A stretch of 64,000 nucleotides of DNA from Bacteroidaceae bacterium (GTDB taxonomy: Bacteria; Bacteroidota; Bacteroidia; Bacteroidales; Bacteroidaceae), in NCBI GenBank assembly GCA_963649665.1, contig CAVJJO010000001.1, forward strand, positions 6,435 to 70,434, given 5' to 3'. Numbering within the stretch: position 1 is the stretch's first letter; every line of letters starts with the position of its first letter. The position numbers and the translations under genes are program-made. Below are positions 3,280 through 59,385 of the stretch, piece by piece. The notes beneath the pieces were generated by a model, which searched no databases, was not told where the DNA came from, and worked only from the letters and a program-made list of their open reading frames with translations.

Positions 3280-3340
3280 ACGTAAATGCCGCTTGATAAA
3301 TGCTTTAGTCGTTTTTTATGCGCTACAAAGCACCTTGTAA

Positions 3341-3457
3341 AAATTCCAAGGCGGGGAATTTAAATTCCAAGGCACGCCGTAAAAATTCCAAGGCACGCCG
3401 TAAAAAATCCCTGCCTTGGAATTTAAATTAGCCCAAGGCCCAACACGTTGGGCCTTG
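3341..3457. repeat. 21-bp-phased AAATTCCAAGGC repeats, inverted copy and palindrome
   Basis: AAATTCCAAGGC at 3341, 3362 and 3383; GCCTTGGAATTT at 3413; CAAGGCCCAACACGTTGGGCCTTG at ~3434-3457. Confidence 0.85.
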
Positions 3458-11907: not shown

Positions 11908-12180
11908 ACTCGCCTTGCACTACTTTGCTTCGCGAAGTTAGGCTGCGGCTCGGCTGTGAAAAGAAAATTTTCTGATTTTCTTTTCGCATCACTCGCCTTG
12001 CACTACTTTGCTTCGCGAAGTTAGGCTGCGGCTCGGCTGTGAAAAGAAAATTTTCTGATTTTCTTTTCGCATCACTCGCCTTGCACTACTTTGCTTCGCG
12101 AAGTTAGGCTGCGGCTCGGCTGTGAAAAGAAAATTTTCTGATTTTCTTTTCGCATCACTCGCCTTGCACTAACTTTGCAC
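11908..12180 (+). repeat. tandem 83-bp hairpin repeat (3 identical units plus a terminal part carrying the promoter box)
   Basis: ACTCGCCTTGCAC recurs at 11908, 11991, 12074 and 12157; inner inverted repeat GAAAAGAAAAT/ATTTTCTTTTC. Confidence 0.95.
12170..12177 (+). promoter_or_regulatory. -7 promoter box of tRNA-Arg, inside the last repeat
   Basis: TAACTTTG ending 15 nt before the tRNA. Confidence 0.75.
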
Positions 12181-12192
12181 CCCGAAGATTCC

Positions 12193-12264
12193 GCCCTCGT
12201 AGTTCAATGGATAGAACACCGCTCTCCTAAAGCAGTGATCTGAGTTCGATTCTCAGCGGGGGTA
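12193..12264 (+). tRNA. tRNA-Arg (CCT)
   Basis: GCCCTCG/CGGGGGT acceptor, TAGTTCAATGGATAGAAC D arm, loop CTCCTAA, GAGTTCGATTCTC T arm. Confidence 0.95.
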
Positions 12265-12409
12265 CTTCATGCCGTTCCGTAACGGACTACCGAACCACCC
12301 TTCATTGTGCTGCATAGGTGCAATGAAGGGTGCGTTTCGTTATAAAGGGCGTGTTGAGCGCGTGGTTTTGAAAACTTGCCCCCATGTGCGGTGCTCCAAA
12401 GGCCGATTT

Positions 12410-12778
12410 TTTTAACACTGAGAATCGCGTAGAAATCACCAAACGCACAGACGCTTGAAAAAACGCGATTTTCAGCGTGCATAATTATGCACTTTGTTGC
12501 CGCTAAATGCGCATATATTCAGAATTTGCTGCATGCTGCTGCATAAAACGTCTTGATGGAGCAAAAAACAGAGCCTTTTTCGTGAAAATTCCAAGCCTTC
12601 TAGGAAAAATTCCCCTTAGGCCCAATGTTTTGGGCCTAAGGGGAATTTTTACGAGATGCCTTGGAGTGACGGAAATGTGCTGAAAAGGGGTCAAAAATCA
12701 TTGGTCTGCTCTCTAGTTTGAAGCGCGCGGGCGAAAAAGGAGAGCTCCTAAATTAACAAATTAAAGGTTCGTTCACGA
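12410..12778 (+). repeat. ~370-bp dispersed element, copy A
   Basis: Starts TTTTAACACTGAGAATCGCGTAGAAATCACC; colinear with 37569-37938 and, inverted, with 49279-49627 and 59017-59385. Confidence 0.85.
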
Positions 12779-28468: not shown

Positions 28469-28632
28469 CCACGAAACTCAACCGTATGACGAGGTTGCGG
28501 CTCCCCGTGCCGCAGCTTCGTCATACTTGCTTTTGCGCCGCCGGCGCACACACACTGTTTCCTTCCGGCGTGCGTCGTCCCCCTGACGCGTCGCACCATT
28601 ATTGTTTCATCCGTAAAAAACACAAAACGTCT

Positions 28633-31600
28633 ATGGCAAAAACTCTACGCACCTTATTGCTGGGAGCGGTAGCCGCTATCAGTTGCACGGCCACGGCACA
28701 AAGCGTGACGCGGGCCACAGCTCCCGACCTCCAGCTCTATGGCAGCATCATCGGCTCGTTCAACGAGCCCGGAAGCTACTACAACGAAAGCGGAGGTATC
28801 TACACCTTCAACCTTCGCCAGCCCGCCGGCATAACCCTCGTAAAGAGCGGTGTGCACACCTACGGCGGAGGAACCTATGCGCAAGGCTCCTATTACCACA
28901 ACGACTTCACCGAAAGCAGTGACGGCAGCCGCATCACCATGCCCATCCGTCTCTACCGCCACAACGCAACGGACTGGAGTCAGGAAAGCCTCAGCTACGG
29001 CTACGCCTTCAGCTGCATCACCTACGACATGACCTTCGACCCCGAGACGCAGCAGCTCTACGCCATCTTCGCCGACGATGCCTACTCCGGCAAACGCCGT
29101 CTCTTTGGGCGTTTCCGCTATAAGGAGCAGGAAGGCGCGCCGCTCTATGAGTGCGACTCAATAGCCGCCTTCCCCGAAGTGATGGTTGCACTCACCGCCG
29201 ACCGCAACGGCACGCTCTACGCCATCGACAAGAAAGCCAATCTCTACACCGTAGACAAATACACCGGAGCCACAAAGCTCGTCGGCAACACCGGCGTGCA
29301 GACCCAGGCCATGTTCCAAAGCGCGGCTTGCAACTACACAAACGGTAAAATCTACTGGGCCACTATCTACAACGACATGTGGGACACCGGCATTTTCGAA
29401 GTAGACCCCGCCACCGCCAAGAGCACCCTCGTTTCCGACTTCGGCTACGACTACGGCACCGCCACGTGCGACCAGTTTACCGGCATCTACTTTAAGGAAG
29501 ACCTCGACCTCCAAGCACTTCCCGACACCGTAGCCAACCTCTCCGCCACCTTCTCCTCCGCCACATCGGGCGAGGCCGTCTTCACCCTTCCCTCTACGGC
29601 AACCGACGGCACCACCCTTTCCGGCACGGTAAACTACACCGTGCGCCTCAACGGCAACGTAGTAGCCACAGGCAGCGGTGAGGCCGGAGCCATAACCACC
29701 GTGCCGTTGCAGACCGCTGCCGAAGGCGAAACGAAAGTAGGCGTCGTGTCACAGCGTCCCGCTACCGCCACGCAACCCGCAGCCACAAGCAAGGAAGTGA
29801 CCGCTACGGCTTGGGTGGGACACGACGTGCCCGAAGCACCCGCCCGTGTGTCCATCCGTGCCGCAGGCAACGACGTCACCGTTTCGTGGAAAGCTCCCTC
29901 GCAGGGCGTGCACCGCGGCTACATCGACGCCGAAAACATGACCTTTACCCTCACGCGCTACATCGAAGGACGCGACGAGCCCGATGCCGTGGTGGCAAAG
30001 GACATCAAAGCCACCACCTACACCGACCACATCGCCTCAGAAGCCAAAAACGTCTACTACTACACCATCACCGCCCGCAACGGCGACTTCACCAGCAAGC
30101 CCGCCACCACACGCACCGTGAAGCTCGGCACGCAGATAGGTTTCCCCTACAGCAATGCCTTCGCGTCCAGTCCGTTCGACGAAGACTTCACCGTGATTGA
30201 CGCCAATGCCGACGACAACACCTGGACTTATAGCGAATCGGACAAGAACGTGCAGTACAACGCCAACGCTCAGAGCGCCGACGACTGGTTCATCACCCCA
30301 GCCTTCAGCGTGAAGAAAGGCGCCATCTACACTTTCTCCTTCACCATGAAGGGTGGCTACTCCGCCGAACGCATTGCCGCCTATCTCGGCGAAGCGCCCA
30401 CGGCAGAAGCCCTCACCACCGAGGTCATCGCCCCCACCGAAATAGCACAGGCCTATTACGGACAGACGCTAAAGGGCACCTTCCGCGCCACAGCCGACGC
30501 CACGCTCCACTTCGGCATACATGCCACGAGCGATGCCTATGCCGGCACGCTTCAGGTAGACGACTTGAGCATCACGGAATGCCCCGTCACCGCCCCCGAG
30601 CCAGTCGCTCAGTTCAAAGCCACGCCCGGAGCCAAGGGCATCAACCAGGCCGACATCACCTTCACCGCACCTTCAGCCACCCTTGAAGGCACACCGCTCA
30701 AAGGCGCGCTAACCATAGACATCACACGCGACGGCAAAACGCTCAAAACGCTCACCGGCGTGCAGCCCGGCGCCGCCTGTTCTTACTCCGACACCTACGT
30801 GTCTACCGACTTCCACACCTACGCCGCCACAGCCACCGCTGCCGATGGACAGCAAAGCGTGGAAGCCGCAGCAACCATCTTCGTGGGCCTCGACAAGCCC
30901 GGTCCCGTACGCAACCTCCGCATTGTGGAAGACCTCGACAAGGAAGGCCTCGTACATCTCACCTGGGATGCTCCCGAAACGGGTATGAACGGCGGATATA
31001 TCGACCCCGAAGGTCTCACCTACTACATCTCCGGCGGCGTGAGCAGTTCGTCGGACTTCTCCATTGGCAATGCAACTCACTACGACGAGCAACTCTCGCC
31101 CAACGGCAAGCAGATTTACCAGGCCTACAGCGTGTATGCCGGCAACAGCGCCGGCAACGGCCGTTCGCAGGTTTGGCAGACGGCCTCCGTCATTGCCGGT
31201 CCTGCGCTGAAGGCCCCCGTCTTCGAATCGTTCGACGGCGCCACCATGAAGAGCGGTCCGTGGCTCACCAAGATGACCAACGGAAAAATTGGCGAAGCCT
31301 ACTGCTACGTAATGAGCGAAGCCACCGACATTGTCCCCGCCGACCTCGATGGCGGTCTGCAGGTGTTCTCCGCCACTTCGCTCGGCAAGTCGGCACGCAG
31401 CGAGAGTCCGAAAGTCGACATCAGCGCACTTGCGAAGCCCGTGCTTCACTTCTGGGCCTACTTCAACGGTAAGGGCGACTCCCTCACCGTGAGCGTATCG
31501 CCCGACTACAAAGGTTTCGAACCCGTGCTCCGTCTCTCTTCCGCCGATGCCGCAGGGTGGAAACGTTTCGCCGTAGACCTCTCGCCTTATCGCTCCAGCC

Positions 31601-33105
31601 GTTTCGTGCAAATCGGTCTTGAAGGAAAGGCAGTGGCCTCGCTCGAGTATTTCATGGCTTACGACAACGTGAGCATCACCGACACTTATGCCGATGACCT
31701 CATGATGCGCGCCCTCACCTCGCCCGACGAGATGAACACGCTCGACGAGAGCGACTTCAAGGTGGCCATTCGCAACAATGGCGACCGCAGCGTGAAGGCT
31801 GCCGACTATAGCATTGTGCTCTACCGCAACCACAAGGAAGTGGCGCGTCAGCAAGGCGAAGACCTCGCCGTCGATGCCAAAATAGAGTTCATGTTCACCG
31901 ACAAGGCTTCCGTGCTTGAAACGGAGAAGAACGTCTACCAGGCTGCCATAGAGTTTGCTGCCGACGAAAATCCCGCCAACAACTTCTCGCAGGCCGACAC
32001 CGTGAAAGTTACGCTTCCCGATTATCCTACGCCCTCTGCCCTTAAGGCCACGAAAGCTACCAACGGCGCAACTCTCAGCTGGACGGCTCCCGACCTCGAT
32101 AACCTCAAGAAGCAGAGCTACACCGAAACGTTTGAGGACTTCCCCGCCTTCACCATTAGCGAAATGGGCGAATGGACGCTCGTCGACGGCGACAAGCAGG
32201 AAACGAAGCGCATCATGCTCAGTAGCGTAATCGGTGCACTCCAGTACGACCACGCCGGCGAAGCCATGGCCTACCAGGTGTTCAACGTGACGCAGGCGGG
32301 CATTCCCTTCGCCACTTGGGATCCCCACTCCGGCGAACAGATGCTTCTCTGCTTTGCCGCTTCTTCTACCGACGAGAGCAATCCCGTAAAGCCCAACGAC
32401 GACTGGCTCATCTCGCCCGCACTCGACGGCTCCGCGCAGACCATAAGTTTCTACGCCAAAGCCGCCCAGGCCTCTACCTACGTGCCGGAAGAAATGGAAC
32501 TCCTTTATTCTATGGAGAGCACCGACACGGCTACCTTCGTCAAGGTAGATAAAGTGAGTGTGACGAATGCCAAAACTTGGGACGAATATCGCTTCGACGT
32601 GCCTGAGGGCGCGAAGTACTTCGCCATCCGCTGCGTGTCGAACAATAAGCTCGCGCTGATGCTCGACGACATCACCTTCATCCCCGAAGGCGCAGAAAGC
32701 GTGGAACTCACGCTCAAGGGCTACAACGTATATCGCGACAGCGTGCTCGTCAATGCATCTCCCGTCACCGCTACGGACTATGTGGACACGACGGTTGACA
32801 CTGCCAAGGACTACACCTATCACGTCACCGCTGTTTATGCCGAGGGCGAATCGCTTCCCTCAAACGCTGCCTGCACCGACGGCACGTCGGCCATCGTCCG
32901 TCCTTCCGCTTCTGCGGTGACGGTAAGCACCGCGGGCCACACCATCGTGGTGAACCATGCAGCAGGTCTCGACGTGGCGCTCTACACTGCCGACGGCCGC
33001 ACGCTTGCCGTGCGCAAGGCCGCGAACCGCGAGACGTTCTGCGTGGAACCCGGCATTTATGTAGTGAAAGCCGGAAGCGTGCGCAGCAAGATTGTAGTGA
33101 AATAA
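28633..33105 (+). CDS. large secreted adhesin-like protein (propeller-like N-terminus, FN3, cleaved-adhesin-like domains, T9SS CTD)
   Basis: Signal peptide; DDWFITP / DDWLISP and KYFAIRC motifs; SWKAP / TWDAP FN3; GYNVYRD; LYTADGR...GIYVVK CTD. Confidence 0.8.
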   Translation: MAKTLRTLLLGAVAAISCTATAQSVTRATAPDLQLYGSIIGSFNEPGSYYNESGGIYTFNLRQPAGITLVKSGVHTYGGGTYAQGSYYHNDFTESSDGSRITMPIRLYRHNATDWSQESLSYGYAFSCITYDMTFDPETQQLYAIFADDAYSGKRRLFGRFRYKEQEGAPLYECDSIAAFPEVMVALTADRNGTLYAIDKKANLYTVDKYTGATKLVGNTGVQTQAMFQSAACNYTNGKIYWATIYNDMWDTGIFEVDPATAKSTLVSDFGYDYGTATCDQFTGIYFKEDLDLQALPDTVANLSATFSSATSGEAVFTLPSTATDGTTLSGTVNYTVRLNGNVVATGSGEAGAITTVPLQTAAEGETKVGVVSQRPATATQPAATSKEVTATAWVGHDVPEAPARVSIRAAGNDVTVSWKAPSQGVHRGYIDAENMTFTLTRYIEGRDEPDAVVAKDIKATTYTDHIASEAKNVYYYTITARNGDFTSKPATTRTVKLGTQIGFPYSNAFASSPFDEDFTVIDANADDNTWTYSESDKNVQYNANAQSADDWFITPAFSVKKGAIYTFSFTMKGGYSAERIAAYLGEAPTAEALTTEVIAPTEIAQAYYGQTLKGTFRATADATLHFGIHATSDAYAGTLQVDDLSITECPVTAPEPVAQFKATPGAKGINQADITFTAPSATLEGTPLKGALTIDITRDGKTLKTLTGVQPGAACSYSDTYVSTDFHTYAATATAADGQQSVEAAATIFVGLDKPGPVRNLRIVEDLDKEGLVHLTWDAPETGMNGGYIDPEGLTYYISGGVSSSSDFSIGNATHYDEQLSPNGKQIYQAYSVYAGNSAGNGRSQVWQTASVIAGPALKAPVFESFDGATMKSGPWLTKMTNGKIGEAYCYVMSEATDIVPADLDGGLQVFSATSLGKSARSESPKVDISALAKPVLHFWAYFNGKGDSLTVSVSPDYKGFEPVLRLSSADAAGWKRFAVDLSPYRSSRFVQIGLEGKAVASLEYFMAYDNVSITDTYADDLMMRALTSPDEMNTLDESDFKVAIRNNGDRSVKAADYSIVLYRNHKEVARQQGEDLAVDAKIEFMFTDKASVLETEKNVYQAAIEFAADENPANNFSQADTVKVTLPDYPTPSALKATKATNGATLSWTAPDLDNLKKQSYTETFEDFPAFTISEMGEWTLVDGDKQETKRIMLSSVIGALQYDHAGEAMAYQVFNVTQAGIPFATWDPHSGEQMLLCFAASSTDESNPVKPNDDWLISPALDGSAQTISFYAKAAQASTYVPEEMELLYSMESTDTATFVKVDKVSVTNAKTWDEYRFDVPEGAKYFAIRCVSNNKLALMLDDITFIPEGAESVELTLKGYNVYRDSVLVNASPVTATDYVDTTVDTAKDYTYHVTAVYAEGESLPSNAACTDGTSAIVRPSASAVTVSTAGHTIVVNHAAGLDVALYTADGRTLAVRKAANRETFCVEPGIYVVKAGSVRSKIVVK

Positions 33106-33126
33106 GCTCCGCAAGCGTTTTTGTTT

Positions 33127-33239
33127 GTCAAGAATTTGAGAATTGAAGAAGACTGCTTTACTTCTCTGATGCTTGAAAGTTTCTATTTGTCAAGAATTTG
33201 GGAATTGAAGCAATGTGCTTCGGTTCTCAGATTCTTGAC
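33127..33239 (+). repeat. two tandem 62-bp-period stem-loop units
   Basis: GTCAAGAATTTG(A/G)GAATTGAAG at 33127 and 33189, each followed by its inverted complement. Confidence 0.8.
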
Positions 33240-33266
33240 TTTCTCTATTCAGTTTCTTCAAACCTT

Positions 33267-36200
33267 ATGATACGACCTTTACTCTTTACCCTTGCCCTCG
33301 GCGCATTTGCAGCATCGGCGCAAGCCCAGCAAAGCGCCGCGCTCCCCGACATCTACGGCAGCGTGGTCTTCGGACATGGATGGGAGGACATGGGCGACAA
33401 TGCCCCCTATGGCATCTACTCCGTGCCGCCGACCGACGGCAGTGCCATCAAACTCGTCAAAGCCGGCAAGCAGTACCATGCCATTGGCGGCGGCGTTTAT
33501 GTGGACGGACGCTACTATCTCGTGGACTACTCCACGCTGCAGACCGAGGGTGCCGTCTACTTCCGCACCTACGACGTGGCCGACGGATGGAAGCTCCTGC
33601 GCGAAGAGCCACTCTCCTCGCTCGAAAGCATTGCCTCCGACCTCACCTACGACCCCGTCACCGACCAGATATTCGGATGCTTCGTGGATGCCGCCACCTA
33701 TTCCTCTGAATCGAAAACCTACTTCTTCGGTACGCTCAATCCGCTCACCGGCGCCAGCACGCATATAGCCTCCCTGCCCGAAGAACTCATCTGCCTTGCC
33801 GCCAACCGCGAAGGCGAACTCTACGGCATCGGTGCGCTCGGTGCCTTGTATAAAGTGGACAAGACGAGCGGCGCCGTAACGAAAATCGGTGAAAGCAACC
33901 GTCAGGTGAAATATGCCCAAAGTGCCACCTTCGACTACGCCAGCGGCCGCCTGCTCTGGGCTATGACGCCGCACTACACCGACGAGTCGCCCGAGGTGTG
34001 CGAAGTGAATCTGCAGACGGGCGCTGCCACCACGCTTACCACCATTCCCGAGCGCTACGAGCTTACGGGCATCTACACCCTCAGTCCCTTTACCCTCGAC
34101 GGTGCGCCTGCGCGTCCCGCCAACTTTGAGTGCAACTATTCCGAGGGTGCGCTCTCCGGCACCGTCGCTTTCGACGTGCCCACCGCCACCTTCGCTGGCG
34201 GCACGCTCGGCGGCAACCTGCGTTACGAGGTGAAACTCGACGGCGAGATAGCCGACGAGGGCACGCTCGAAGCTGGTGCCAAACGCTTCACCCTTCGTGC
34301 CGACCTCGAGCGCGGCATGCACGAAGTGAAAGTGGCGGTAAGCAACGCCACCGGCCGCAGTCCCTATGCCATAAAGGACTTCTGGGCGGGCGCCGACGTG
34401 GCACAGGCCGTGGCGCCCACAGCCACGAAGGTCAACGACACCGACGTTTCCGTCCAATGGACGGCTCCCACAGAGGGTATCCACGGCGGATACATCCACG
34501 CGGACGGTCTCTCCTACATGGTGACGCGCATGCCCGACGGAGTGAAACTCTACGAAGGCACAGCCACCTCCATGACCGACAAAAACGTGGACCGGCTCAG
34601 TTTCGACAGCTACTACTACCAGGTGACCGCCCGCGTCGACGGCACCGACGGGCAGGCAGCCTACACCACCCCCATGCACTTGGGCAAAACGCTCCATTTG
34701 CCTTACCTCCAAGGCTTTAATAGCGAGATGGAAGCGAGCACCATGACCATAGAGAACCGCAACAACGACTGCAGCACGTGGGAATATTACGACATGGGCA
34801 TGGTTTACGGTCTCAGCGACGACGAGAAGGACGCCGACGACTGGCTCATCACCCCTGCCTTCACCCTCAGCGCCGACTCCGTCTACCACGTGAGCATCGA
34901 CGCCTCCACCGATGAAGGCGCTACCGAAACGCTCGGCATCTTTGCCGGTGCAGCGCCCAAGGGCGATGCCATGACGCAGACCATCGTGCCCCACACGGCC
35001 GTGACCAACGTGCCCTATCAGAGCTACGGCGGCTATTTCCGTCCCGCCGCCACCGGCACGTGCTACGTGGGCATACACGCTGCCAGCACCTATGCCGACG
35101 GCAGCTACCTCTATGCCGACAATCTGCGCGTTGACCTCGTGGCCTCCGTCTACGCCCCCGCAGCGGCCACTAACGTTTCGGCGCTTCCGCAGGGCACGGA
35201 GCAGAAAGTGCAGCTTTCCTTTGCAGCACCTTCCACCGACTATGTCGGAAACACCCTTTCCTCCATCAGCCGCATAGAAGTGGTGCGCACCACCGACGGC
35301 GAGAAGGTGGCCACGCTCACTGATGCCGTACCCGGAAAGCTCTATACGCTCACCGACGAGCCTTACGACGAGGGCACAAACGACTATCTCGTCACCGCCT
35401 ACAACGACTACGGTGCAGGCATCCCCGTCAGTGCGAGCGCCTATGTGGGCCTCGACACGCCCGCTGCGGTGACCGACGTGAAACTCTCCGCCACCGACGA
35501 CGGCCAGGTGACGCTCTCTTGGAAAGCTCCCGAAACCGGACTCCACGGCGGAAACATCGACCCCGCAGCGCTCACCTACCGCGTAGGAAACCTCAACGGC
35601 ACGGAGTCTGCCACGACCATCGTGAGCGAAACGTCGTACTCCGAGCAAGTCACGCTCACCGAAGGCACGCAGCGCCTGACGTGGTACACCATTCAACCGC
35701 GCAACACCAAGGGACAGGGCCGCAAGGTGCAGACCGACACCATCTTTGTAGGCGCACCCTACGACATGCCCTACAACGAGTCGTTCAAGCTGCGAAGCCT
35801 TGAGCGCGGACCGTGGAACACGCTCAACAGCGACCTCGCCGAGTGGAACCTCCTGCAATACGGTTCCTACACCGACGCTGCCGACAACGACAACGGACTC
35901 ATTGCCTTCTCCACCCTTTCCGAAGGCTCCGAGGCACAGCTCGTCAGTCCCAAGATATCCCTCAACGGCGGCACGCAACCGCGTCTCACCTTCTACCTTT
36001 GGAACATGAAGCGCGCCGTACACTCGCTCCGCGTGCAGCTCCGCGGTTCCGGCGGCCGCGTCTACACGCTTGCTACCATCACGCCCAACGAGACTGACAA
36101 CGAAACGCTCGACGGCGAGTGGAAACGCTACGAGATAGACCTCTCTTCCTACGTCCGTCTCAACAAACACGTGCAAGTCATCTTCACCGGCGTGGGCGGC

Positions 36201-37568
36201 CACATTACCGACTACACCGTCATCCCGCCCGTATATCTCGACCGCATTTGCCTTGACGACCCTACGCCGCAGAACCTTGCAGCGCAGCAGCTCGTGGCAA
36301 AGAAGGATCACGTGGCCGTGGGCGACGACGTGAACTTCACGCTCACCGTCAACAACAAGGGTACGCGTGAAGCCGACAACTACCGCGTGTGTCTCTACCG
36401 CGACGGGCTTTGCGTAGACTCCGTGGCAGGACGCGCCGTAGCAGCGGAAGCCTACACCACGGTACAGCTCCACGACGCGCCCAATGCCGATGCTTCCGAA
36501 ACGAGCCGCTACACCGCCACCATAGACTGGGACGACGATGCCGACCTCTCGGACAACACTTCGCCCACGTGCGTAGTCACCGTGCTTCCCGGCCAACCGT
36601 TCATCCGCCGCGTGCAAGCAGCCAAGGACAACGGCAGCGTGAAGCTCTCCTGGGAAGAACCCGAAGGCATTGCCGCAGGCACCGAAGCCGCCACCGTGAC
36701 GGAGGACTTCGAATCGTATGCCGCATTCACCATCAGCCACTTCGGTGAATGGAGCCTCCACGACGGCGACCGACAGACCACGCTCGGCATTCAGGACGGC
36801 ACGGGCTACTTCGTGCAGTACGACAATGTGGAGTCGCCCATGGCGTTCCAGATTTTCAACCCCTCGGCTGCAAATCTCAGCAGCTACTACTTCCCCACCC
36901 ATTCGGGTAAGCAAGTGGCAGCCGCCTTCAACGCTGGGCGCTACACCGCCAACGACGACTGGCTCATCTCGCCCGAAGTGGACGGCGCACAGACCATCAC
37001 GTTCTGGGCATGCAGTCCCGACGCCAGCTACTACGGTACGCAAGAGCAGATGGAAGTGCTCTACTCCACTACCGACACGCTCACCGAACACTTCACAAAG
37101 CTCGGCAGCACCTACACCGTGCCCGGGAAGTGGACGCAATACAGCGTGGCGCTCCCCGAGGGCACACGCCACTTTGCAATCCGTTGCACCTCGCTCGACC
37201 AGTACATCCTCTTCGTCGACGACATCACTTACCGCAAAGCGCCGCGCGACTTCCGTCTGCTCGGCTACAACGTCTACCGCAACGGCACGCTCCTCACTCC
37301 CGCACCCATAACTTCCACGAGCTACACCGACGCTTTCTCTTCCGAAGCCGACTACAAGGTAAGCGCCGTGTACAACACGGGTGAAAGCCGGCAGACCCAA
37401 GCAGAGTGGGGCACGCCCTCAGCCATCAGCAACGTAAGCGCCGATGCTTCAGCACCCGCTGCCGTTTACGACGCCCAAGGCCGACTCCTTCCCTCCACTA
37501 CGCTGCCCTCCGCCCATGGTGTCTACATCGTGCGCAAAGGCGGAAAAACGGTGAAGGTGATGAGATGA
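33267..37568 (+). CDS. large secreted adhesin-like protein, paralog of the upstream gene
   Basis: Same domain order; DDWLITP / DDWLISP, RHFAIRC, GYNVYRNG, VYDAQGR...GVYIVRK CTD. Confidence 0.8.
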   Translation: MIRPLLFTLALGAFAASAQAQQSAALPDIYGSVVFGHGWEDMGDNAPYGIYSVPPTDGSAIKLVKAGKQYHAIGGGVYVDGRYYLVDYSTLQTEGAVYFRTYDVADGWKLLREEPLSSLESIASDLTYDPVTDQIFGCFVDAATYSSESKTYFFGTLNPLTGASTHIASLPEELICLAANREGELYGIGALGALYKVDKTSGAVTKIGESNRQVKYAQSATFDYASGRLLWAMTPHYTDESPEVCEVNLQTGAATTLTTIPERYELTGIYTLSPFTLDGAPARPANFECNYSEGALSGTVAFDVPTATFAGGTLGGNLRYEVKLDGEIADEGTLEAGAKRFTLRADLERGMHEVKVAVSNATGRSPYAIKDFWAGADVAQAVAPTATKVNDTDVSVQWTAPTEGIHGGYIHADGLSYMVTRMPDGVKLYEGTATSMTDKNVDRLSFDSYYYQVTARVDGTDGQAAYTTPMHLGKTLHLPYLQGFNSEMEASTMTIENRNNDCSTWEYYDMGMVYGLSDDEKDADDWLITPAFTLSADSVYHVSIDASTDEGATETLGIFAGAAPKGDAMTQTIVPHTAVTNVPYQSYGGYFRPAATGTCYVGIHAASTYADGSYLYADNLRVDLVASVYAPAAATNVSALPQGTEQKVQLSFAAPSTDYVGNTLSSISRIEVVRTTDGEKVATLTDAVPGKLYTLTDEPYDEGTNDYLVTAYNDYGAGIPVSASAYVGLDTPAAVTDVKLSATDDGQVTLSWKAPETGLHGGNIDPAALTYRVGNLNGTESATTIVSETSYSEQVTLTEGTQRLTWYTIQPRNTKGQGRKVQTDTIFVGAPYDMPYNESFKLRSLERGPWNTLNSDLAEWNLLQYGSYTDAADNDNGLIAFSTLSEGSEAQLVSPKISLNGGTQPRLTFYLWNMKRAVHSLRVQLRGSGGRVYTLATITPNETDNETLDGEWKRYEIDLSSYVRLNKHVQVIFTGVGGHITDYTVIPPVYLDRICLDDPTPQNLAAQQLVAKKDHVAVGDDVNFTLTVNNKGTREADNYRVCLYRDGLCVDSVAGRAVAAEAYTTVQLHDAPNADASETSRYTATIDWDDDADLSDNTSPTCVVTVLPGQPFIRRVQAAKDNGSVKLSWEEPEGIAAGTEAATVTEDFESYAAFTISHFGEWSLHDGDRQTTLGIQDGTGYFVQYDNVESPMAFQIFNPSAANLSSYYFPTHSGKQVAAAFNAGRYTANDDWLISPEVDGAQTITFWACSPDASYYGTQEQMEVLYSTTDTLTEHFTKLGSTYTVPGKWTQYSVALPEGTRHFAIRCTSLDQYILFVDDITYRKAPRDFRLLGYNVYRNGTLLTPAPITSTSYTDAFSSEADYKVSAVYNTGESRQTQAEWGTPSAISNVSADASAPAAVYDAQGRLLPSTTLPSAHGVYIVRKGGKTVKVMR

Positions 37569-49278: not shown

Positions 49279-49627
49279 TCGTTAAATCGCTTTTACCATT
49301 GTTAAATCTGTGACTTTTTCTTGACAGCCGGAATGGCTCAAACTAGAGCGGAAAACGGGTTTTGAAAACGTCGGAAAGCCTCGTTTTTCAACTTTCGGGC
49401 AACTTGTAAAAATTCCAAGGCGGCAAAGAAAAATTCCAAGGCAGCAAATTTTTCCTGGATGCCTTGGAATTTTCGCGGAAATAAGGGGCGTTTTGCGGAG
49501 ACGGCTTGAAGAAATTCTTTTATACTGCAAGTGCGTTCAATAAACTAAACTTTTCTGCACGCTGAGAATGGCGTATTTGTGAGCAACTGGGCAGTTGGTG
49601 ATTTCTACGCGATTCTCAGTGTTAAAA
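49279..49627 (-). repeat. ~350-bp dispersed element, copy C
   Basis: Ends GGTGATTTCTACGCGATTCTCAGTGTTAAAA; AAATTCCAAGGC at 49410 and 49431; colinear with copy D. Confidence 0.85.
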
Positions 49628-56840: not shown

Positions 56841-58640
56841 TTATTCGCGGTTGGCGCGCTTGCGGGCAAGGTGGTCGAGGAGAATCTTGCGCATGCGCAT
56901 GGACTTGGGCGTAACTTCTACGTATTCGTCTTCCTTGATGTATTCGAGTGCTTCTTCAAGTGAGAAGATGACGGGCGGGATGATGCGGGCCTTGTCGTCG
57001 GCACCCGAAGCGCGCATGTTGGTAAGCTGCTTGGCCTTCGTCACGTTCACCACGAGGTCGTTGTCGTGAACGTGTTCGCCTACTACTTGGCCGGCATAGA
57101 CCTCATCCTGCGGGTTGATGAAGAAGCGACCGCGGTCCTGAAGTTTGTCGATGGCGTAGGCAAATGCTGTACCCGTTTCGAGGGAAATCATGGAGCCGTT
57201 GGAGCGGCGCTGGATTTCGCCCTTGAAGGGCTGGTATTCCTTGAAGCGGTGGGCCATGATGGCTTCGCCCTGCGATGCGGTGAGCACGTTGGTACGCAGA
57301 CCGATAATGCCGCGTGAGGGGATGTCGAACTCAATGTCCACACGGTCGCCCATGCTCTGCATGGAGGTCATTTCGCCTTTGCGACGCGTCACCATGTCGA
57401 TCATTTTGGAGGAGAACTCTTCGGGCACGTTGATGGTGAGTTCTTCGATAGGCTCGCACTTTTCGCCGTCGATTTCTTTGTAGATAACCTGGGGCTGACC
57501 CACCTGAAGCTCGTAGCCTTCGCGGCGCATCGTCTCTACGAGGATGGAGAGGTGGAGCACACCGCGTCCGCTTACTATCCAGCTACCTTCGGTTTCGCAG
57601 CTGCGAACGCGCAGGGCGAGGTCTTTTTCGAGTTCCTTGGCAAGGCGGTCGCCGATGTGGCGTGAGGTGCAGTATTTGCCTTCCTTGCCGAAGAAGGGTG
57701 AGTCGTTGATGGTGAAGAGCATCGACATGGTAGGTTCGTCGATGGCTATGGTGGGAAGGGGTTCGGGGTTTTCGAAGTCGCAGATGGTGTCGCCGATTTC
57801 AAATCGTTCAAGACCTACCACTGCGCAGATGTCGCCCGAGCTTACTTCGTCGGTCTTCTGGCGGCCCATGCCTTCGAAGGTGTGTACTTCCTTTATCTGT
57901 GTTTTCTCAAGTGTGCCGTCGCGGTGGGCGATGGTGCACTTCATTCCTTCGCGGATGGTGCCGCGGTGAACGCGTCCCACGGCGATGCGGCCCGTGTAGT
58001 TGGAGTAGTCGAGCGAGGTGATGAGCATTTGGGGCGTGCCTTCGAGCTGCTCGGGGGCGGGGATTACTTCAATGATTTTGTCGAGCAGATAGTTGATGTT
58101 GTCTGTCGGCGTGTTGTAGTCTTCGCCCATCCATCCGTTCTTGGCCGAACCGTACACTACGGGGAAATCGAGCTGGTCTTCGGTGGCGTTGAGGTCGCAC
58201 ATGAGGTCGAACACCATTTCGTATACTTCTTCGGGGCGGCAGTTGGGTTTGTCCACCTTGTTGACCACCACGATGGGTTTGAGGCCAATCTGGAGTGCTT
58301 TCTGCAAGACGAAACGCGTTTGGGGCATGGGGCCTTCGAAGGCGTCGACGAGGAGAATGCAACCGTCGGCCATGTTGAGCACGCGTTCCACCTCACCGCC
58401 GAAGTCGGAGTGACCCGGAGTGTCGATGATGTTGATTTTGGTGTCCTTATAACGGATAGACACGTTCTTGGAGAGGATGGTTATACCGCGTTCGCGTTCA
58501 AGGTCGTTGTTGTCGAGGATAAGTTCGCCGGCGTTCTGGTTCTTGCGGAAGAGGTTTCCTGCAAGCAGCATCTTGTCCACGAGCGTAGTCTTTCCGTGGT
58601 CTACGTGGGCAATGATGGCGATGTTACGAATGTCTTGCAT
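56841..58640 (-). CDS. typA: translational GTPase TypA/BipA
   Basis: IRNIAIIAHVDHGKTTL, RGITI, DTPGH, NKVD, GRGVLHL, KQLTNMRASG. Confidence 0.98.
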   Translation of the reverse strand: MQDIRNIAIIAHVDHGKTTLVDKMLLAGNLFRKNQNAGELILDNNDLERERGITILSKNVSIRYKDTKINIIDTPGHSDFGGEVERVLNMADGCILLVDAFEGPMPQTRFVLQKALQIGLKPIVVVNKVDKPNCRPEEVYEMVFDLMCDLNATEDQLDFPVVYGSAKNGWMGEDYNTPTDNINYLLDKIIEVIPAPEQLEGTPQMLITSLDYSNYTGRIAVGRVHRGTIREGMKCTIAHRDGTLEKTQIKEVHTFEGMGRQKTDEVSSGDICAVVGLERFEIGDTICDFENPEPLPTIAIDEPTMSMLFTINDSPFFGKEGKYCTSRHIGDRLAKELEKDLALRVRSCETEGSWIVSGRGVLHLSILVETMRREGYELQVGQPQVIYKEIDGEKCEPIEELTINVPEEFSSKMIDMVTRRKGEMTSMQSMGDRVDIEFDIPSRGIIGLRTNVLTASQGEAIMAHRFKEYQPFKGEIQRRSNGSMISLETGTAFAYAIDKLQDRGRFFINPQDEVYAGQVVGEHVHDNDLVVNVTKAKQLTNMRASGADDKARIIPPVIFSLEEALEYIKEDEYVEVTPKSMRMRKILLDHLARKRANRE

Positions 58641-58671: not shown

Positions 58672-58802
58672 GTGCAAAGTTACTGCAAGGTGAGCGAAGA
58701 GCAAAGAAAAGGAACTTTTATTTGCTCTTCCGAACCGCAGCGTAACTTCGCGAAGCAAAGTGCAAGGTGAGCGAAGAGCAAAGAAAAGGAACTTTTATTT
58801 GC
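58672..58802 (-). repeat. 77-bp tandem hairpin repeat (about 1.5 units) carrying the typA -7 box
   Basis: TGCAAGGTGAGCGAAGAGCAAAGAAAAGGAACTTTTATTTGC at 58684 and 58761; homologous to the 11908-12180 unit; TAACTTTG (minus strand) at 58675-58682. Confidence 0.9.
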
Positions 58803-58825
58803 ATTGGTCTGAAGCGTATGGGTGA

Positions 58826-58960
58826 CGTTTGCAGCTGCCTATGGGGGTGACGTTTTCAAAACGTCACGCTTTACGCTGACGTATACGCGCGTATATTAAT
58901 AATGTGTAGTATACAAAGCGCTGCGCATGGAGTCTTGCCCCCCATGCGCTTCGCACCATC
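58826..58960. repeat. REP-like units
   Basis: 58826-58874 is an inverted near-copy of 12885-12933 (3 mismatches in 49 nt); 58895-58960 resembles 12989-13048. Confidence 0.8.
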
Positions 58961-59016: not shown

Positions 59017-59385
59017 TGTTAACCCCGCTTTCACTATTGTTAAATTTGTGACTTTTTATTGACAATCGGCTTTCTCAAACTAGAAAAAGAAAGGGCGCTT
59101 TTGAAGCGTTGAAAGTCTCGTTTTTCAACTTCAAGGCGGTTTGTAGAAATTCCAAGGCATCCCAACGTGTTGGGCCTAAGGGGAGTTTTTTCTAGATGCC
59201 TTGGAATTTTTGCCAAAATAGGGGCTGTTTTGCCTCCATTAAAGGGCGGTTTTTGGAGATGCTTGAATAATATTCTTGAATAGTGAAATAGCTTTCGATA
59301 ATCTAAACTTTTCTGCGCGCTGAGAATCGCGTATTTGCGAGCGACTGGGCAGCCGGTGATTTCTACGCGATTTTCAGTGTTAAAA
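59017..59385 (-). repeat. ~370-bp dispersed element, copy D
   Basis: Ends GGTGATTTCTACGCGATTTTCAGTGTTAAAA; contains AAATTCCAAGGC...GCCTTGGAATTT. Confidence 0.85.

Follow-up and report, generated by a model that had tools for sequence, protein, structure and literature searches.

A 64,000-nucleotide stretch of a Bacteroidaceae bacterium genome (assembly GCA_963649665.1, contig CAVJJO010000001.1, positions 6,435 to 70,434; hereafter the window) carries two short tandem arrays of a hairpin-forming unit, one made of 83-bp units upstream of a tRNA-Arg gene and the other of 77-bp units upstream of typA. Both belong to a widespread family of 60-90 bp imperfect hairpins. Alignments of orthologous sites show that the element has been gained and lost at these sites, and that it inserts directly 3' of TTT with no required target duplication. 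The element is probably a non-autonomous mobile DNA hairpin, with a guide logic like that of the IS200/IS605 transposons, that survives by rebuilding the promoter it interrupts.

The initial annotation of the window had described an 83-bp unit repeated three times at tRNA-Arg and a homologous 77-bp unit at typA. Tandem Repeats Finder and the spacing of the conserved cores bear out both, placing the first array at 11908-12178 (period 83, 3.3 copies, 99% matches). Taken to its predicted end, this array occupies 11908..12176 on the plus strand; it is broken off within a unit at its far end, is precise at its gene-proximal end, and stops 16 nt short of tRNA-Arg(CCT) (12193..12265, plus strand), the gene its terminal promoter is predicted to serve. 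The internal units (11909..12097, plus strand; right cores at 11909, 11992 and 12075) are each followed by the box minus one base and a linker capped by GC-TTC-GC. The terminal unit, also on the plus strand, begins with the left foot AAGTTAG (12101..12107), a putative guide that, judging from its sequence and from family-wide covariation, pairs with the terminal box and not with the internal junction. There follow a conserved left core GCTGCGGCTCGG forming one side of a bulged stem (12108..12119), a variable AT-rich inner hairpin recognized by folding (12120..12157), whose right arm gives the -33 region, and a conserved right core CTCGCCTTGCAC (12158..12169) that includes the promoter spacer and a TT bulge. 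The unit closes with an intact Bacteroidota -7 box, TAACTTTG (12170..12177), as defined by the consensus in the available text of PMC12120099. The predicted element end and insertion point is the TTT/GC bond between 12176 and 12177, placed by an end rule drawn from the four empty/filled contexts described below.

The second array (58676..58802, minus strand; 1.6 units, period 77 between right-arm cores, terminal unit 58748-58676) ends 34 nt before the start of TypA, a GTPase (typA/bipA, 56841..58640, minus strand) assigned by its match to Pfam GTP_EFTU/BipA_C. Its terminal unit holds a complete promoter match (58675..58705, minus strand), with TTTG at 58705-58702, a spacer of 19 nt and TAACTTTG at 58682-58675, whereas the -33 place of the tRNA-Arg terminal unit holds TTTT/TTCG. 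Both arrays end in TAACTTTG, as originally claimed, and only the last unit of each has the intact box, the internal copies being short by 1 nt at tRNA-Arg and by 4 nt at typA. In folding, the two terminal units far surpass every one of 200 dinucleotide shuffles (z of -5.5 and -5.3 as RNA, -4.1 and -4.4 as DNA), and their opposite strands likewise fold far better than shuffles. The two compensatory changes reported between the arrays, G-C to C-G at the foot and C-G to T-A in the GGC/GCC stem, are as described; a third claimed pair, the T of GCTGC with A, is not conserved and is unpaired in 15 of 48 alignment rows. In a close relative (L104, G163:C20) tRNA-Arg and typA are divergent neighbors with an element in each promoter, back to back. 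The two genes lie 46 kb apart in the source genome (G000), and the repeats may have acted as rearrangement points.

Across the family, a unit consists of a variable linker, a left foot xAAnnTAG, a left core GC(T/G)GC-GG(C/T)-TCGG, an inner hairpin, a right core CTC-(G/A)CC-TTGCA and a right foot CTAnnTTT; the single arms are not palindromes by themselves. The inner hairpin is 22-43 nt long, occurs as 141 distinct sequences among 149 terminal units, and folds better than all of 20 shuffles in 114 of the 149. The cores were specified in our search patterns, so that part of their invariance is built in. The nn positions of the foot and the TTTG were left free in the two-arm pattern set of 112 terminal units, and among the matches listed the nn positions are complementary in 95 of the 112, against 33.8 expected. 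In an alignment of 48 rows, 92% of cells are paired (38-53% in slid controls), 12 of 24 pairs vary on both sides, and none of 500 shuffles equals this. Changes on both sides account for 148 cells and changes on one side for 3, with almost no G-U intermediates. The covariation first seen between two copies thus holds in a larger alignment, and the family alignment bears out a dispersed hairpin with fixed bulges, a variable tip and a structure that is kept. At topA in G163 and at cysS in G000, a perfect reverse complement of the right arm has taken the place of the left arm; the bulged form is retained in close relatives. Because such arm-to-arm copying shows that template switching can produce covariation, covariation is no proof of RNA function; the bulges outlast template switching, and it is their survival that needs explaining. 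The role as RNA raised in the initial annotation is not supported, given two-sided changes with almost no G-U intermediates and the arm conversion.

A sister subfamily of 107 distinct units has the same bulged core as the main type. Its foot has five positions that are free in sequence, each still paired in 96-105 of the 107 units, and an invariant TT at positions 6-7, the last T of which is Watson-Crick paired in just 5 of 107. Many sister units lie within other repeats or leaders, and they have no TAnnTTT foot. Since the sister foot is free in sequence, the promoter-ended form would be one foot sequence of a wider family. At L006, L010, L028, L033 and L330, arm variants also occur in mosaic arrays with the main type, namely left GCTGCACCTCAGC with right TTCGGTTTGCAC, and a right arm variant CTCGCCTTTCAC in other families.

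To describe the spread of the family we used several search models. A profile hidden Markov model seeded from regular-expression matches, the source genome's own copies among them, found 15 near-full units at 9 loci of the source genome and none in the reversed genome, and a covariance model built from 48 hand-picked terminal units found 16 units at 10 loci plus 5 units of the sister type. A 20-letter right-arm pattern matched 67 of 148 genomes of the genus (28 of 59 among those of good quality), with 0-75 copies in each and 0 control matches. The exact two-arm pattern matched at least 123 stretches, and also 2 viral contigs; among the matches listed, record titles name Alloprevotella, Prevotella, Prevotellamassilia, Bacteroidaceae, Muribaculaceae, Rikenellaceae and Porphyromonadaceae. 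When the covariance model was run on 150 other genomes across the order, 12 matched, one of which (G165) is a simple repeat and was discounted. This distribution is patchy and implies that the family is either old or travelling. The copies in a 7.5-kb 'phage' record and in a Phocaeicola plasmid record are promoter insertions only. Rfam, at gathering and E-value thresholds, returned tRNAs alone and no structured RNA family from the window and 13 other loci, in keeping with the initial annotation, whose author knew of no described system that matches the element. We found no account of the hairpin in the open literature, a search that did not extend to subscription journals, ISfinder or supplementary repeat lists; the available part of PMC3733652 mentions Bacteroidetes solely for CGTC repeats.

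Copies are placed non-randomly with respect to genes. Among the matches listed, a sense open reading frame (ORF) of at least 60 aa starts within 150 nt of 99 of 110 copies, at a median of 31 nt, whereas on the other side this holds for 20 of 93. Two of the 11 copies with no nearby sense ORF precede tRNAs, and three end in repetitive extragenic palindromes (REPs). The downstream genes are unrelated to one another and encode GTPases, synthetases, helicases, transporters and regulators (85 of 125 ORFs scanned). Terminal units conform to the sequence pattern of Bacteroidota primary-sigma promoters, given for Bacteroides in the available text of PMC12120099 as TTG/TTTG, 19-21 nt and TANNTTTG upstream of the gene. 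The -7 box is present in 142 of 149 terminal units, and TTTG lies exactly 19 or 20 nt upstream of the box in 97 of 149. An intact TAnnTTTG box is found in 106 of 112 terminal units versus 23 of 52 internal ones, again among the matches listed. The promoter rebuilt by the element is predicted to be active. Being upstream of the expected start site, the hairpin would be absent from the transcript of its own promoter. The initial annotation had offered that the element either carries or targets promoters. Both apply, and exclusive targeting of promoters does not, as TTT-ending sites in REPs, in a MITE (miniature inverted-repeat transposable element) and in coding genes are used too.

Orthologous loci revealed empty and filled alleles in four contexts: the typA promoter, a REP, the MITE and a mobilisation-like gene. 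Among 41 typA orthologues, 11 promoters hold a full unit and 30 do not, 3 having a right arm only (one of these an array broken by Ns) and 27 having none, although some of the 27 scored as empty bear decayed remains; the filled/empty state calls for 7 changes on a tree of 41 rows and 240 columns. The typA promoter of G007 is that of G017 with 150 nt added after the host TAACTTT and before GCACCC; its leader is the same. In the source genome the MITE is empty at C3 and C12 and filled at C9, C10 and C54 with a 70-nt sister hairpin, and the C3/C54 pair gives a unique register with no shared bases and no target duplication. The mobilisation-like gene has a 72-nt in-frame insert in one of 76 parsed viral loci (75 empty) and in three metagenome loci. 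In G058 and its relatives, 10 copies sit in the center of a GTAG-type REP whose empty form occurs in the same genome. A single end rule accommodates the four contexts: the end of the element lies 7 nt past CTTGCA(C/G), and its landing point is right after TTT. Target duplication is required in none of them, and three of the four have no identity 3' of the cut. A phage SNF2-like helicase in the source genome (G000 C185, L349; also L401, L409) carries a 72-nt in-frame sister insert as well, which recurs in 2 of 80 homologues and is lacking from 77. In coding genes the direction of change read from these alignments is clearly gain rather than loss, because empty forms dominate; in the typA, REP and MITE contexts gain is inferred.

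The helicase insert encodes a 24-aa peptide, derived from the sister hairpin, within a variable loop, and the mobilisation-like gene (L525, L532, L585, L586) has a similar 24-aa insert; both can be likened to the hairpin-derived protein insertions of Rickettsia palindromic elements. We considered the MITE as a vehicle for the hairpin and rejected this, as the MITE occurs both empty and filled and is thus a host. The MITE belongs to a family of about 190 bp with 18-bp terminal inverted repeats and TTA/TAA flanks (G000 C3:34553-34742, C12, C9, C10, C54 and many contig ends); internal deletion has also left very short versions of it (window about 24700, C42, C56, C115).

Traces of the interrupted host promoter remain next to many arrays. 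Where an array's first unit has no other unit in front of it, the 30 nt upstream contain a displaced host TAnnTTT in 35 of 84 cases, against 8 of 84 and 7 of 84 in control windows. At the nn positions the left foot agrees with the box of the element itself in 34 of 36 cases and with the displaced box in 17 of 36, which indicates that the element brings its own box. Copying of the foot from the target in every case was considered and rejected, although typA and the helicase are consistent with it. The element end together with the host GC rebuilds the target, which allows tandem and mosaic arrays to form, and later units join at the gene-proximal end (G095 versus G002). The two ends of 93 arrays differ: the near one is precise, with 88 intact boxes, and the far one breaks off at any point between 0 and 86 nt into a unit. 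Junction spacers are 3 nt in 38 of 59 cases and 7 nt in 4 of 59, and 15 of 59 start with GC. In the three closest genomes the same loci are filled and copy number and truncation differ; each lineage has rebuilt its arrays locally out of the terminal unit. Within one genome, inner hairpins from separate loci can be nearly identical (4 of 13 in G067, 9 of 15 in G058), which reveals movement from locus to locus. The picture suggested by these comparisons is one of slow spread and fast local turnover, as described for REP doublets forming hairpins (REPINs) in the available text of PMC8049555.

We propose that movement takes place in the form of a folded single DNA strand, on which a strand-transfer enzyme encoded by the host or by a mobile genetic element acts in trans; the closest known logic would be the peel-and-paste transposition of IS200/IS605 by an HUH (Y1) transposase. 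An HUH enzyme in particular is a candidate, at somewhat less than an even chance. The left foot would act as a guide, pairing with the element's own end and, loosely, with the target. In the main subfamily, insertion at a host TAnnTTT/GC shifts the host box upstream, and the promoter made by the element takes the same place relative to the gene, with the inner hairpin supplying the -33 TTTG at the right distance and the right foot serving as the -7 box. Arms are kept complementary at least partly by arm-to-arm copying, and arrays are amplified again and truncated locally. Promoters may be favored as the most frequent matches to the foot, as sites that may be melted, and as places where an insertion is tolerated.

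Several observations weigh against this proposal. The foot does not have a single origin: 7 of the 11 full typA copies have a G of the host type in front of TA, a rarity at other loci (in the main subfamily C outnumbers G at this position), and the right foot in the phage helicase is native coding sequence. Its origin therefore appears mixed, with matching targets preferred or the foot converted later. Mismatches in the outer stem favor folding of the bottom strand (24 vs 6, 15 vs 3), whereas the terminal position and the inner stem do not. Orthologous copies persist in the three closest genomes, so movement is slow. No cognate enzyme was found among the Y1 or REP-associated tyrosine transposase (RAYT), reverse transcriptase and integrase loci or the neighbor proteins examined, in assemblies that are mostly incomplete and could hide one. 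Only one of 52 Y1/RAYT loci has an element nearby, and that copy is seated in the RAYT's own REP. PF01797 is found in 45 of 67 carriers versus 33 of 81 non-carriers, a comparison confounded by kinship, and is unmatched in 13 of 41 genomes with at least 10 copies. NF047646 is not associated (30 of 67 carriers versus 35 of 81 non-carriers, counted by hand), and there is no Y1 gene among 106 neighbor proteins scanned.

Other enzyme classes fared no better. An autonomous parent was absent from the 85 of 125 downstream ORFs and 106 of 120 neighbor representatives scanned; these scans gave a single integrase fragment and a single DDE transposase, and the element does not enclose either. IS91-type Y2 transposases had no match in 5 genomes, with control genomes equally silent, which makes the comparison uninformative. 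No element copy lay near 29 tyrosine recombinase and reverse transcriptase loci. The co-occurring tyrosine recombinase or HUH gene that had been suggested was thus not found in comparisons of loci, neighbors and genomes. The source genome's two Y1 genes and 50 others were rejected as cognates, being flanked by other REPs. A long RAYT class, represented by the 212-aa RAYT-like gene on G000 C118, occurs in 22 of 148 genomes, and the REPs that flank it differ from genome to genome; in G073, G147 and G065 it is fused to long ORFs (frames of 939-1323 aa). A 151-aa IS200-like Y1 gene on G000 C79 (L021) is flanked by multiple GCCCTGAAAGGGC-type palindromes, and its class is present in carriers and non-carriers alike.

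The same element might instead be moved by a tyrosine recombinase of the IntDOT type, with the folded foot rebuilding a core-type site, in the manner of attC or of folded phage attP sites, and a single strand exchange at TTT/GC resolved by replication. The attachment sites of CTnDOT have cores GTANNTTT (PMC5812530, PMC4145004), and IntDOT makes its first cut between the T and G of TTTGC (PMC2817482), which, going by the available text of these sources, is the same motif and bond as our predicted end in the main subfamily. The match to IntDOT and the match to the promoter box are one observation, however, and not two. Tyrosine recombinases were present in 5 of 5 genomes checked, and the paired foot, bulged middle and variable tip recall the attC sites of integrons. 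On the other hand, IntDOT requires an overlap of 7 bp, of which the 2 bp following the cut must be identical (available text of PMC2817482), and this overlap and GC identity are missing at most junctions, where 3-nt spacers prevail and a GC start is the minority, as they are from the three empty/filled contexts that lack identity 3' of the cut. A TAnnTTT foot is absent from the sister subfamily, the element has no arm sites and no integrase and is smaller than 100 bp, and no copy lies within 1.5 kb of any of 26 integrase loci. We consider movement by such a recombinase rather unlikely.

Nor need there be a dedicated enzyme at all: host repair and replication could spread the hairpin by template switching, microhomology-mediated capture or gene conversion via the shared -7 box, with amplification by slippage. 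The arm replacements at topA and cysS show template switching, arrays are re-made locally, two-sided changes far outnumber one-sided ones, and the enzyme searches came back empty. What such processes leave unexplained is the exact end, which is the same in four unrelated contexts, one of them with zero microhomology, and the invariant terminal TT of the sister subfamily with its unpaired last T. Moreover, the asymmetric bulges stay invariant from family to family even though they are subject to a process that removes them, which suggests that a protein recognizes them. Host repair alone accounts for the arrays and the covariation and not for the fixed end, and we regard it as an improbable explanation of the whole.

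A host regulatory element, whether a transcription-factor operator, a cruciform switch or a structured RNA leader, kept by selection at a promoter regulon, would agree with the strong covariation, the overlap with promoters and the persistence of orthologous copies among close relatives. It is very hard to reconcile with absence from 81 of 148 genomes of the genus, complete ones included, with downstream genes that share no function, with copies inside REPs, a MITE and two coding genes, with a hairpin lying outside the transcript of its own promoter, and with the lack of an Rfam match; the element may nonetheless have a secondary regulatory effect. An RNA-templated element with a precise 3' end and a 5' end truncated by target-primed reverse transcription would explain the end asymmetry of the 93 arrays, but RVT_1 is found in only 2 of 5 genomes checked, the source genome not among them, there is no poly-A and no target duplication, and the element's promoter points away from the element, so that this origin is scarcely credible.

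The mobile hairpin that we favor resembles several known systems. As in IS200/IS605, which use single strands and palindromic ends with cleavage sites chosen by guides 5' of the palindrome (PMC8266576, available text), insertion occurs 3' of a short T-rich motif without duplication (TTT in 4 of 4 contexts), the element end resembles the target, and a complementary stretch that may serve as a guide lies 5' of an imperfect palindrome with a variable linker between the left cut and the guide. The putative guide pairs with the element's own end in 95 of 112 units, among the matches listed, and with the displaced target in 17 of 36 at nn. Unlike IS200/IS605, one hairpin per unit serves both ends, the putative guide is a 6-bp collinear helix of free sequence, and no TnpA parent was found among the Y1 loci or neighbors examined.

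With the REPs, REPINs and bacterial interspersed mosaic elements (BIMEs) that are tied to RAYT, or TnpA-REP, enzymes, the element shares short non-coding hairpins, inverted arms around a diverse spacer, a conserved bulge, tandem arrays, local amplification and slow turnover (PMC8049555, PMC8266576, available text). Its arm layout is theirs, with two inverted arms and a diverse spacer in units that are dispersed, often tandem and mostly extragenic. Unlike these repeats, it has no fixed GTAG/CGTC tag (the left foot is nnTAG/nnTAC with nn free, and the sister foot is free at five positions), no flanking RAYT across the 52 Y1 loci and no palindromic arms; it is also strictly oriented into promoters, carries a promoter and inserts into REPs. 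It would work, on the features compared, like a REPIN or an IS200/IS605 miniature while being a member of neither, and would add in-register promoter replacement.

Integron attC sites are folded single strands with a paired foot, fixed unpaired features, a variable tip and an invariant GTT/AAC core. The initial annotation had drawn a loose analogy to attC or HUH-recognized hairpins. The anatomy supports it, and membership in attC does not follow, because the element's foot varies freely with no invariant core, there are no cassettes and no intI, copies are dispersed, and the downstream genes are housekeeping genes. Promoter-bearing MITEs or 'putative mobile promoters', such as Correia and the BrickBuilt of Porphyromonas gingivalis (PMC4596501, PMC3575422), likewise place promoter elements before unrelated genes by means of small mobile sequences. 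In contrast to them, the element lacks terminal inverted repeats with target duplication, and it targets the host promoter box and restores it in register. A classical DDE-derived MITE is set apart by target duplication, of which there is none in the MITE pair and none required in the other pairs.

A broader and more speculative view, which we hold only tentatively, is that these are order-wide minimal DNA parasites in which one hairpin combines three roles, those of substrate for transposition, re-programmable guide to the target and portable promoter. The guide of the most successful lineage would be the sigma -7 box, allowing host promoters to be replaced in register, by means of an enzyme that has so far been connected with no repeat and might be a hijacked integrase of the IntDOT type. 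As many as 75 promoters in a single genome, a good number of them for housekeeping genes, are rewritten by one repeat in gut Bacteroidales. The element may standardize or retune expression, and may confound the discovery of promoters and RNA motifs in the order. Hitting a promoter box and rebuilding it would be a way for a bacterial mobile element to be harmless of which we found no account in the open literature; in-register replacement, if true, is the promoter counterpart of a self-splicing intron or intein. The free-sequence foot and fixed cut bear on how REP-like hairpins spread and on whether Bacteroides integrases act on folded single strands, and, if the foot is a guide, an important gut lineage would have a programmable system of insertion that is very small.

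The window contains further repeats. REP-like palindromes at 58820-58950, upstream of the typA array, match the repeats that flank the 212-aa RAYT-like gene on G000 C118 (L022). Dispersed 21-bp repeats with AATTCCAAGG, partly inverted, occur at 3337-3410, 49408-49448, 12580-12680 and 59130-59240. A 62-bp tandem duplication at 33117-33238 lies between the very long ORFs 28486-33105 and 33198-37568.
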